A DNA stretch of 64,000 bases from Pseudomonadota bacterium. Its GTDB lineage: Bacteria; Pseudomonadota; Gammaproteobacteria; JAIEPX01. Where the stretch lies: positions 1,735 to 65,734 of the forward strand of contig JAKORL010000116.1 in assembly GCA_029777855.1 (NCBI GenBank), given 5' to 3'. This document shows, piece after piece, positions 45,001 to 48,000 of this stretch; position 1 is the stretch's first letter; the number at the start of each line of letters is the position of its first letter. A program made the position numbers.

Positions 45001-48000
45001 TCGAGATCCGGTAAACTATAATCCTCGTAAATTATTTGAATGGATGCGTAAGCAGATTGAAGAAAGACATGAAGAAAATATTGTGATTCAGATGGTGTAA
45101 TAAAATAAAAAGGGTCGTTTCTCTCGTTGGCTATTCCCTTTTGCGAAATTGTCCGATGGCCAACGGGAGACACGCCCCCCCGTCCTTATTTTTTGAAATA
45201 ACTGGACTGGCGTAGTTTAATTATATATAGTAAGAGTTGCATTAGGGGTGCTCACTGGATGGGCTGAGAAGCGAGTTGCTAACCCTTTGAACCTGATCTC
45301 ACTAATCTGAGCGGAGGAAAATGTGATGTTCATAATACAATCACTGTTTGGCTTTATTGCACTGATAACCTCATTTGTTGGTTTATTACCCCAATCTTTC
45401 AAAGCCTATAAAACACGATCTACCCAAGATATATCCCTGTTGATGATCTTGAATTTTTTATTATGTTCTGTTGCGTGGATTATCTACGGAATCTGTATTA
45501 ATGCTGGTTTCGTTGTTGCAAGCAATATTGTAGGCTTGTTGAGTAGTGTATTGCTAATTGCTCAAAAACGGTACTACGATAATGCTCAATAATAATCGCT
45601 TTAAATCAATTCTTTGTCTCAATGGAGAACTGCCTGAACGAGAATTTTTTCAGCGCAACTTGCCTATAGTTGCTGCAGATGGGGCATTTCTAAAATTACA
45701 AAAAATGAATCTCAAGCCTCATGTTGTCATTGGTGATTTTGATAGCATCGATGTGGCTCAATTACAAGGCCATAATCATATTCATGTGCCTGAGCAAGAT
45801 AGTTCAGATTTTCAAAAATGCCTGTCCTATATGGCTAAAGAAAATTTATTGCCCGCTATTATAGTAGGAGTGCACGGCGGTTTTCTTGATCATATCCTTC
45901 AAAATATCAATATTTTTATGAGCACTGATTCAGTACTTTACGCGCCACCGATTTACGGTTTTACAATTAAAAATAAAAATACGCAGCGGATTATCACAGA
46001 AAATGGACAAAAGATTTCGTTAATAGGCATGCCCTCAGCTATCGTCGAAACTCATGGATTAAAATGGGACATCAAAAAAAGTGAATTGACGTTCCCAGGG
46101 CAAAGTGCCTGTTTTAATCGTGCCAATCAAGGCTATGTCGACATTACTGTTCATGAAGGCTCTGTGCTTGTTTTGCAGTATTTAGAGCTAATTCAAGATG
46201 CAGGCTGGAACCCGTCGCAGACGACATCAATTTCCTTTAACACTTGAAATTGCAGTAGCAAATCTTTCAATAAGATCAATGGGGAAAACGATTGTTGTCG
46301 CATTTTCTTCAGAGATGCTATTTAGGGTTTGCAAGTAGCGAAGTGTAATACCGCCTTGGCTTCCGGATAAAACATTCGCAGCTTCGGCTAATTTGGCAGA
46401 GGCTTGTAGCTCACCTTCGGCGTGAATCACTTTTGCACGACGTTCACGTTCAGCTTCAGCTTGTTTTGCGATGGCGCGGATCATGCTTTCATCAATGTCG
46501 ATGTGTTTTATTTCTACAATACCGACTTTAATTCCCCATGCATCGGTTTGCACATCGAGTATTTTTTGAATGTCTGCATTGAGTTTGTCACGTTCTGATA
46601 AAACATCATCGAGCTCATGTTGACCTAAAACAGATCGTAATGTTGTTTGGGCTAATTGATTGGTTGCTTCATAATAATTTTGTACTTGCAGATAGGCTTT
46701 TTCGGGATCAACTACGCGAAAATAGAGTACGGCATTTACACGTGCAGAAACGTTGTCTCGTAATATGACATCTTGGCTGGGTACATCCATCACAACTGTT
46801 CGCAAATCGATGCGCACCATGGTTTGAACGCCTGGTATTAAGAGTCGAAGCCCAGGCGATTTAATTCCCCAAAAACGTCCAAAAGTTAGGACAACCCCGC
46901 GTTCATATTGTTTTATAACTCGAATGGTGTTTAATAAAATAAATCCTAATACAATCGCAATAAATAAAATAAAAACTTCCATTAAGATTCTCCTTTCGTT
47001 GATTGGATGGGTTCAATATGTAAAATCAGTCCCTGAATTTCAGTCACCTTTACACGTTCTCCAACTTGCAAAGGGAATGCTGATTTGGCTTGCCATATTT
47101 CACCTTGAACACGCACTTGGATAACATTATCATGAATTGCAACAATTTCACCAGTGCTAATTAAAATAGCTTCCCGCCCAGTGACTTCGGGCGTGCGTTG
47201 TGCTCGTATGGCCATGGCTATTATTAATAATATCAAGCCAGCGGTAATGATGGTGGCTCCTATGATTAGCGGTAGCGGAATACCAAAACCTACGACGTTG
47301 GTATCCATTAACATTACGGAGCCTATTAAAAAGGCAATAACTCCTCCAATGCCGAGAATGCCATAGCTTGTAATATACAATTCCGATGCTAAAAAACCGA
47401 TGCCCAAAAAAATTAATATTAAACCAACATAATTGATAGGCAATAGTTGAAGTGCGTAGATGCCAATTAATAAAGAAATAGCACCTAATGCGCCTGGGAT
47501 GATTGTTCCAGGTGTGGTGAATTCAATAAATAGTCCATATACCCCAACCAAAAGTAATAAGTAGGCGACACTTGGATCTGTAATAGCAGATAAAAATTTG
47601 GCGCGCCAATCAGGTTCGATTTTTTTTATAATGATGTTATTAGTATGTAGAGTAGTAATTTTGCCGTCAATTTCAGTTTTTCGTCCGTTTAAATCGGATA
47701 GTAATTTATCGATATTGTCTGCTTCAAAATTAATCACATTTTTCTGTAAGGCTTCTTTTTCAGATAGGCTTTCTGCTTTAATGACTGCTTGTATTGCCCA
47801 CTGAACATTACGGCCACGTAATTGAGCTAAGCTACGAATATACGCAGTAGCATCGTTGGTGGCTTTATGTTCTAGTGTTGATTGATGCTTATCCTTAGAT
47901 TCGTCCGAAGGTTCGGTCATCCCAATCGAAACTGGTGTTGCAGCGCCTAAATTTGTTCCTGGTGCCATCACCGCAAAATGGCTAGCGTACAGGATGTAGG

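Follow-up and report, generated by a model that had tools for sequence, protein, structure and literature searches.

In a 64,000-nt stretch of DNA from a gammaproteobacterium of the JAIEPX01 lineage (contig JAKORL010000116.1; the whole stretch is hereafter called the window), we examined a two-gene operon in which a thiamine pyrophosphate (TPP) riboswitch directly precedes the gene of a small SemiSWEET-family transporter, itself overlapping the gene of a thiamine pyrophosphokinase (TPK). Each of the three parts is identified by family models, their linkage is conserved across three bacterial phyla or classes, transporter and kinase are fused into a single protein in some bacteria, and the Shine-Dalgarno (SD) sequence and the start codon of the first gene lie within the aptamer itself. 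We consider it likely, from these sequence features, that the operon encodes a thiamine-related uptake-and-trap module, in which a facilitative thiamine uniporter would feed a trapping kinase under feedback control by TPP.

The three parts of the operon and their linkage

We searched the whole window against Rfam with cmscan at curated thresholds and obtained two matches, one tRNA and one TPP riboswitch (RF00059). The latter lies at 45234-45336 on the forward strand, scores 68.7 bits against a gathering score of 54.3 (E = 2.2e-11 for the 64-Kbp window) and spans the full model (positions 1-105 of 105); homologous aptamers in 33 of 43 other genomes, described below, further support this THI-box. 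The elements of the aptamer, all on the forward strand, are helix P1, in which 45236-45243 pairs with 45320-45327 (found by direct helix search, and able to extend to 8 bp), the CUGAGA motif read at 45264-45269, helix P4, in which 45292-45294 (C-C-U) pairs with 45315-45317 (A-G-G) according to the covariance model and the fold, and helix P5, pairing 45298-45301 with 45308-45311. The motifs ACCCUUUGAACCUGAUC and GCGGAGG are present as quoted in the initial annotation, a reading of the sequence that preceded this analysis. In an alignment of 23 leaders, RNAalifold detects double-sided compensatory changes in 7 of 19 pairs, located in P2, P3 and P5. P1 was not recovered from these 23 leaders, owing to 1-nt register shifts in the alignment, and was recovered by a direct helix search on each sequence; it covaries in Rickettsiales with the start codon still inside (UCAC/GUGA in L016, a Rickettsiales metagenome-assembled genome, MAG).

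The first gene (45326-45592, forward strand) encodes an 88-aa SemiSWEET-family protein with three transmembrane (TM) helices, the proposed thiamine facilitator; read from ATG 45326, its sequence is the same as that of the database protein P0001, and the alternative start GTG 45323 would give 89 aa. Pfam places the open reading frame (ORF) in MtN3_slv (PF03083/PF04193 clan; E = 4.7e-11, 43 bits, cut-off 23.7) and PQ-loop (E = 1.5e-10, 41.1 bits, cut-off 22), and the sequence matches the crystallized SemiSWEETs 9kax and 4rng over its full length (E about 1e-10). An AlphaFold2 model built on a 29-sequence alignment displays three helices (residues 2-30, 38-57 and 61-87) with a predicted local distance difference test score (pLDDT) of 91.7. 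The top matches of this model in a Foldseek search of the PDB are all SemiSWEETs (4rng_A, TM-score 0.87/0.93, rmsd 1.1 Å), cystinosin and the mitochondrial pyruvate carrier (MPC) being weak matches. In the Pfam and NCBIfam scans, the protein matches MtN3/PQ-loop families only and no Pnu family, so that its likeness to Pnu transporters would be one of function alone. Note that the NCBIfam SemiSWEET subfamily models NF037967-9 are not passed, the best being SemiSWEET_2 with 56 bits against a cut-off of 80, and the protein thus belongs to a divergent subfamily. It carries the PQ motif (P22-Q23), the clade-typical T15-S16 pair, and W51 and N67, which align with W48 and N64 of LbSemiSWEET, presumably the Trp/Asn pair of its pocket. 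The P22-Q23 hinge, W51, N67, D35, S37 and G55 are invariant across 50 context-verified homologues.

The second gene (45582-46247, forward strand) encodes a TPK (ThiN) of 221 aa, which matches the NCBI equivalog TIGR01378 thi_PPkinase with 125.4 bits (cut-off 76.4), PF04263 TPK_catalytic with 66.3 bits (cut-off 30.7) and TPKs of the PDB with E-values from 1e-6 to 5e-9; its B1-binding domain is borderline (21.5 against a cut-off of 22). Its ATG at 45582 overlaps the last 11 nt of the SemiSWEET gene (stop codon 45590-45592), and it has no strong SD of its own. TPK likewise overlaps its upstream gene in most other loci, as judged from coordinates, and the overlap together with the lack of an obvious SD fits translational coupling of the two genes. 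The initial annotation had proposed a canonical THI-box in the 5' leader, an 88-aa, 3-TM PQ-loop protein encoded by the first gene and a TPK encoded by the second gene, and all three assignments are borne out; as to the protein check that it called for, the Pfam families and the SemiSWEET fold were found, but the NCBIfam subfamily cut-offs were not reached.

We then asked how the three parts are distributed, using a profile built from SemiSWEET homologues to scan one genome per GTDB species, so that the 43 loci obtained were found via the SemiSWEET alone. Database homologues at 54-100% identity include proteins of Legionella, Fluoribacter and Rickettsiales. The 43 genomes comprise 26 Legionella/Fluoribacter species (L. 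pneumophila subsp. fraseri and L. longbeachae among them), 5 Coxiellaceae or other gammaproteobacterial MAGs, 3 Rickettsiales, 5 Holosporales, 3 other Alphaproteobacteria and 1 Chlamydiales. TPK is found immediately 3' of the SemiSWEET gene on the same strand in 42 of them (tblastn E-values from 5e-38 to 2e-109), and an RF00059 match immediately 5', again on the same strand, in 33, of which 32 come from runs at the gathering threshold and one (L017) lies exactly at the gathering score in a permissive run. The locus without TPK, that of L016 (2896-6158), is a second, independent thiamine context, where the riboswitch and the SemiSWEET gene head a thiE-thiM-thiD-tenA series. Overall, the window and the 43 genomes together give 44 loci, all with a thiamine context; the carbohydrate context that would mark a sugar transporter is absent from them, and the linkage under a TPP riboswitch is that of a PnuT-TPK-type module. 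The co-occurrence suggested earlier for Legionellales therefore holds, and it extends beyond that order.

Two groups of loci deserve a separate description. The SemiSWEET-linked TPP riboswitch of L. pneumophila subsp. fraseri (L035, 2890-2993) scores 60.8 bits. In four alphaproteobacterial endosymbiont MAGs (L006, L007, L013 and L043), the pair has no riboswitch, whether through loss or because none was ever acquired, and lies directly behind an ORF of 564-579 aa. This ORF reads as ribosomal protein S1 (rpsA) in L007, and its conserved C-terminal sequence suggests the same identity in the three others. Such an arrangement suggests constitutive co-expression with a highly expressed gene.

In L007, which belongs to Holosporales, the SemiSWEET and TPK are encoded in one reading frame of about 302 aa (about 3001-3909), in a gene that has no canonical start codon and overlaps the rpsA stop codon. 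At first, we suspected that this fusion might be an artifact of the MAG, as a word-indexed search using it as query gave no further fusion and its start codon is not canonical; the idea of an error was set aside once two other fusions, P0184 and P0329, were found. P0184, obtained by an exhaustive HMMER search of 1.84 billion representatives that gave 1082 homologues, is a 319-aa protein with a normal Met start, in which PQ-loop/MtN3 and TPK_catalytic/TPK_B1 domains are joined by a linker of about 35 residues. At least four contigs carry it, beside ankyrin-repeat genes, and these derive from no fewer than three samples; its gene overlaps an upstream yceG gene (L044 5001-5960; L045 5001-5960). 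P0329 (320 aa) has the same architecture and is only 56% identical to P0184, which indicates that the fusion has been maintained through substantial divergence. As the linker of L007 differs, the three fusion proteins represent at least two independent fusion events. No riboswitch was found at the P0184, P0329 and L007 fusions, whose carriers are uncultured, ankyrin-rich and probably intracellular bacteria. SemiSWEETs have an N-out/C-in topology, and the C-terminal fusion of a cytoplasmic enzyme is consistent with it. Other relatives differ in architecture: P0180, P0182, P0198, P0242 and others either consist of SemiSWEET units in tandem or duplicate (122-320 aa, with two stretches matched) or are fused to large unrelated regions (529-620 aa), bacterial SWEET-like duplications being among them.

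The fusions and the tight coupling of the two genes would also fit a scaffold, in which this very small protein would serve as a membrane anchor or regulatory partner that localizes or modulates TPK and conducts no substrate. We regard this as very improbable, as an anchor would have no need of the transport-critical residues P22-Q23, W51, N67, D35, S37 and G55 that are kept in all 50 homologues, and as the SemiSWEET is retained where TPK is absent, in L016.

Start signals within the aptamer

The initial annotation placed the ribosome-binding site in the 3' arm of the riboswitch, and this is where it is found. The SD, GGAGG, reads at 45313-45317 on the forward strand, in the 3' strand of P4, 8 nt ahead of ATG 45326 and 5 nt ahead of GTG 45323, and three of its bases (A45315-G45317) pair with C45292-U45294 in this helix. 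The 3' strand of P1 (45320-45327) in turn takes in GTG 45323 as well as the A and the T of ATG 45326. In the window, the octamer AUGUGAUG (45321-45328), within or at the end of P1, holds three features in 8 nt: a minimal start-stop ORF (AUG 45321, UGA 45324), the GUG at 45323, which is the position used as start by Legionella, and the likely real AUG at 45326.

This arrangement is common to the homologous leaders. Of 34 leaders, 33 carry GCGGAGGAA towards the 3' end of the aptamer, and the remaining one, L014, carries GCGUAGGAA. Compared with the Rfam consensus GCGuAGG, the U-to-G change yields a perfect SD at the price of a G-U pair. The 3' strand of P1 begins 2 nt after the SD-bearing stretch and holds the start codon in most loci, as GUG in most Legionella and as AUG or GUG in Rickettsiales; in other lineages, it ends at most 4 nt from the start codon. 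The GCGGAGGAAAAUGUG junction is thus kept, with the start codon within P1 or no more than 4 nt away in 34/34 leaders.

A scan of the leader for terminators gave no terminator-like site, the sole one in 45000-46400 falling inside the TPK gene. Transcription attenuation was rejected on this ground and because the aptamer abuts the start codon. As P4 includes the SD, and P1 includes or adjoins the start codon, the binding of TPP should directly block translation. The simplest reading of these sequences is that the aptamer would be its own expression platform and would act as a translational OFF switch, which would require neither a separate platform nor a terminator. When TPP is ample, the leader would bind it, P1 and P4 would be stabilized, and the ligand-stabilized fold would hide the ribosome-binding site; since P4 holds the SD and P1 holds or abuts the start codon, translation of the SemiSWEET would be shut off, and that of TPK along with it because the genes overlap.

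A TPP riboswitch has been described in the same genus, at the thi biosynthesis operon lpp1522-1527 of L. pneumophila; it reacts to TPP supplied externally, a predicted terminator follows it (transcriptional control), and CsrA modulates it (Sahr et al, 2017; PMC5338858). That study describes the thi element as L. pneumophila's first riboswitch, does not mention the SemiSWEET-linked element and names no uptake route (PMC5338858). The two riboswitches belong to the same class, but the SemiSWEET-linked aptamer abuts the start codon and is without a terminator. Note that, as external TPP acts via the thi riboswitch, some route of uptake exists in L. pneumophila.

Substrate and direction of transport

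TPK acts on free thiamine only, and the bacterial de novo route uses ThiL and not TPK. The pairing of the SemiSWEET with an enzyme that has no de novo role thus points to free thiamine, and the predicted repression at high TPP fits uptake or salvage. Characterized SemiSWEETs and SWEETs are uniporters, able to run either way, and BjSemiSWEET transports sucrose, a larger molecule than thiamine (265 Da). On this basis, we infer thiamine as the substrate, import as the direction and uniport as the mechanism. The SemiSWEET, presumably a homodimer like its crystallized relatives, would let free thiamine diffuse across the inner membrane, and the co-translated TPK would convert it into TPP, which would be unable to exit via the pore. 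Because TPP could not leave, the thiamine gradient would stay directed inward, and a uniporter with a metabolic trap would achieve net accumulation, as in PnuT-TPK.

Since a uniporter of this family can run either way, the protein could also be pictured as a facilitator working in both directions or as an exporter, letting out thiamine or a toxic analogue. Such a role appears most unlikely to us: an OFF riboswitch cuts expression at high TPP, just when an exporter of surplus vitamin would be required, and a trapping kinase as partner favors net import.

A different substrate is the more serious concern, even if we judge it unlikely. The SemiSWEET may import a moiety or degradation product of thiamine, such as hydroxyethylthiazole (HET), hydroxymethylpyrimidine (HMP) or aminopyrimidine, or a phosphorylated form, TPK being merely a co-regulated salvage enzyme. 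Control by the riboswitch in itself shows only a thiamine-related role, and in L016 the riboswitch and SemiSWEET head genes for enzymes that use HET and HMP (thiE-thiM-thiD-tenA), without TPK, which suggests that, in some lineages, the salvage of thiazole or pyrimidine may involve the transporter as well. Two observations speak against moiety import: in 42 of 43 genomes, the SemiSWEET is paired with TPK, an enzyme that accepts free thiamine and nothing else, and physical fusion to this enzyme has occurred independently at least twice. To our knowledge, Holosporales, Rickettsiales and Chlamydiales also generally lack the enzymes for precursor use, which we count against it as well.

Several observations weigh against intact thiamine as the substrate or against the proposed control, and temper the uptake-and-trap proposal. 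The sugar-pocket residues W51 and N67 are fully kept, so that nothing obvious in the sequence points to a different substrate, and it offers no acidic residue that would balance the thiazolium charge. For the L016 context, intact thiamine is no better an import candidate than thiazole or pyrimidine moieties. In 10 of the 43 genomes, no riboswitch match was obtained at E-values up to 1. The minimum free energy (MFE) fold of the single leader in the window does not contain P1 and is no more stable than shuffled sequences (z = +0.88); as the single-sequence MFE fold is uninformative, the OFF-switch model rests on the covariance model and the comparative data. Finally, the module is not essential in L. 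pneumophila, since this species has a de novo thi operon (PMC5338858).

To see how far the thiamine association reaches within the family, we sampled ten more distant representatives (30-47% identity). Four of them (P0277, P0195, P0240 and P0232) lie on contigs too short for context and were left out of the clade comparison. Riboswitch, SemiSWEET and TPK are all present at P0194 and P0213, a riboswitch and a weak partial TPK match at P0207, on a truncated contig, and TPK without a riboswitch at P0221; these relatives with kept context are at 38-47% identity. Neither TPK nor riboswitch was found at two out-group members, P0224 (whose neighbors are NeuB and a glycosyltransferase) and P0197 (between polyprenyl synthase and Era). 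Comparison of the four with these two indicates that the thiamine association is specific to one part of the family, which reaches down to ~38% identity. This comparison also bears on the possibility that an ordinary sugar SemiSWEET sits by chance in a thiamine operon. The Pfam and NCBI names do say sugar transporter, and W51 and N67 are retained; nevertheless, such a coincidence is scarcely credible given the linkage to riboswitch and TPK across three phyla or classes, the fusions and the second thiamine context, and the out-group SemiSWEET that does lie in a sugar context, P0224, is without this linkage.

We also looked for residues that would mark the thiamine-linked clade. A signature of ten residues (T15, G19, N43, C47, S48, F62, S66, G70, Y84 and D85) scores 8-10/10 in 44 core proteins versus 0-2/10 in crystallized sugar SemiSWEETs. 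As a general determinant, it was rejected: P0221, P0213 and P0207 score 3-4/10 despite having TPK and/or a riboswitch, and P0197 scores 6/10 without either. Only the T15-S16 pair in TM1 is shared by every one of the 50 context-verified proteins and missing from the six comparators; we put it forward as a hypothetical clade marker, the negatives being as few as these six. We lean towards a broader proposition, taken as one joint statement, in which the SemiSWEET clade marked by T-S would be a hitherto unrecognized family of thiamine uniporters and a major entry route for vitamin B1 in Legionella and in the obligate intracellular Rickettsiales, Holosporales and Chlamydiales, the whole cassette of riboswitch, transporter and TPK having spread horizontally among amoeba- or protist-associated bacteria and having been repeatedly fused.

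Genomic surroundings, related systems and significance

Upstream of the aptamer, a strong imperfect hairpin is predicted by RNA folding at 45112-45177 on the forward strand, followed by a U-run at 45189-45194. Its folding energy is -33.6 kcal/mol (z = -4.6) and none of 200 shuffled sequences folds as well; a simple terminator scan did not call it. It probably terminates the 3281-aa gene located upstream and insulates the thiamine operon from read-through. A candidate sigma-70 promoter (TGGACT, 17-nt spacer, TATAGT; 45203-45231, forward strand) stops 3 nt short of the aptamer. No other promoter-like site occurs in 45000-46400; this one matches 9 of 12 positions, such sites being no more frequent there than expected by chance (mean of 4.1 sites in shuffled sequences), and its position ahead of the aptamer is suggestive only. 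Downstream, a gene for an SPFH/Band7 protein (46227-46982, reverse strand) is convergent with the operon and pairs with a gene for an NfeD protein (46982-48355, reverse strand). With the hairpin and promoter candidate on one side and the convergent pair on the other, riboswitch, SemiSWEET and TPK form a self-contained two-gene unit. The 3' end of the SPFH gene overlaps that of TPK by 21 nt, and a syntenic gammaproteobacterial MAG locus, L001, is without most of 46227-48355.

The ORF directly upstream of the operon (35255-45100) encodes 3281 aa, with LRR_4 matches, a long charged repeat of the EAERKAREEAEAKAR type and a C-terminal GPSGIGKS P-loop-like motif. Relative to L001, with which the window is syntenic on both sides of this gene, the window has an insertion of ~10.3 Kbp between a tRNA-Met gene (34895-34971, reverse strand) and the riboswitch. 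The inserted region (34972-45230) consists of this single ORF, which is absent from L001; it looks like a giant effector-like protein inserted beside a tRNA. A second giant ORF of 2927 aa (15-8798, forward strand) is present at the start of the window.

The closest known system is PnuT-TPK (pnuT-tnr3) of Bacteroides thetaiotaomicron and B. uniformis (10.1101/867226), which likewise combines a TPP riboswitch, a small facilitative inner-membrane transporter and TPK as a trap. The riboswitches of Bacteroides transport operons have also been inferred to act on translation (bioRxiv 10.1101/867226). The present operon differs from PnuT-TPK in that the transporter is a 3-TM SemiSWEET triple-helix bundle, a fold unrelated to that of the Pnu family, no OMthi outer-membrane partner is present, and the aptamer itself holds the SD and the start codon. 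With the sugar SemiSWEETs of Bradyrhizobium (BjSemiSWEET, 9kax), Leptospira (4qnc), Thermodesulfovibrio (4rng) and E. coli (4x5m), the protein shares the Pfam families, the fold (TM-score up to 0.93), the PQ hinge, the W/N pocket pair and the D/S loop motif. It departs from them by its sequence (28-36% identity), by T15-S16 in place of (L/I/C/A)-T, by N43, C47, S48, F62 (Pro in the sugar forms) and a C-terminal YD motif in most members, and by a genomic context of thiamine and not of carbohydrate. Cystinosin, PQLC2/Ypq1 and MPC share the triple-helix-bundle architecture, in a clan that handles non-sugar and cationic substrates, but are 7-TM or heterodimeric, eukaryotic and distant in sequence, and none is linked to thiamine. 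Other thiamine importers, the ThiBPQ ABC system and ECF-ThiT, are often under TPP riboswitches; unlike the SemiSWEET-TPK pair, they are ATP-driven primary transporters of unrelated folds that need no kinase trap.

The initial annotation did not recall this transporter class being assigned to thiamine, and this holds in part. A full-text literature search found no link between SemiSWEETs and riboswitches and no thiamine assignment beyond one study, TCDB, RegPrecise, SEED and subscription journals being outside its reach. In that study, one sentence mentions a TPK gene beside a Legionella cherrii SemiSWEET and suggests 'secondary metabolites', with no mention of a riboswitch, distribution, mechanism or experiment (Jia et al, 2018; PMC5972207). 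Precedent thus exists for the TPK neighbor, and none was found for the riboswitch or the mechanism. The parts and the overall logic are known; what is new is the transporter family for thiamine, the breadth of its distribution, the fusions and the self-contained translational riboswitch.

The leader offers a compact case of a TPP aptamer whose own helices contain the SD and the start codon, and the natural transporter-kinase fusions provide a ready system for studies of substrate channeling. No transporters smaller than bacterial SemiSWEETs are known, and these proteins are used as models in structural work; nothing was known of their physiological function according to Jia et al (2018; PMC5972207). 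If true, a thiamine role would give one clade a concrete function, the first well-supported physiological role and the first non-sugar substrate for bacterial SemiSWEETs, and would extend the substrate range of the fold to a cationic vitamin. It would also name a plausible route of thiamine uptake in L. pneumophila, L. longbeachae and the host-dependent Rickettsiales, Holosporales and Chlamydiales, the last three of which must get thiamine from their hosts, and such a route suggests an entry path for thiamine antimetabolites.

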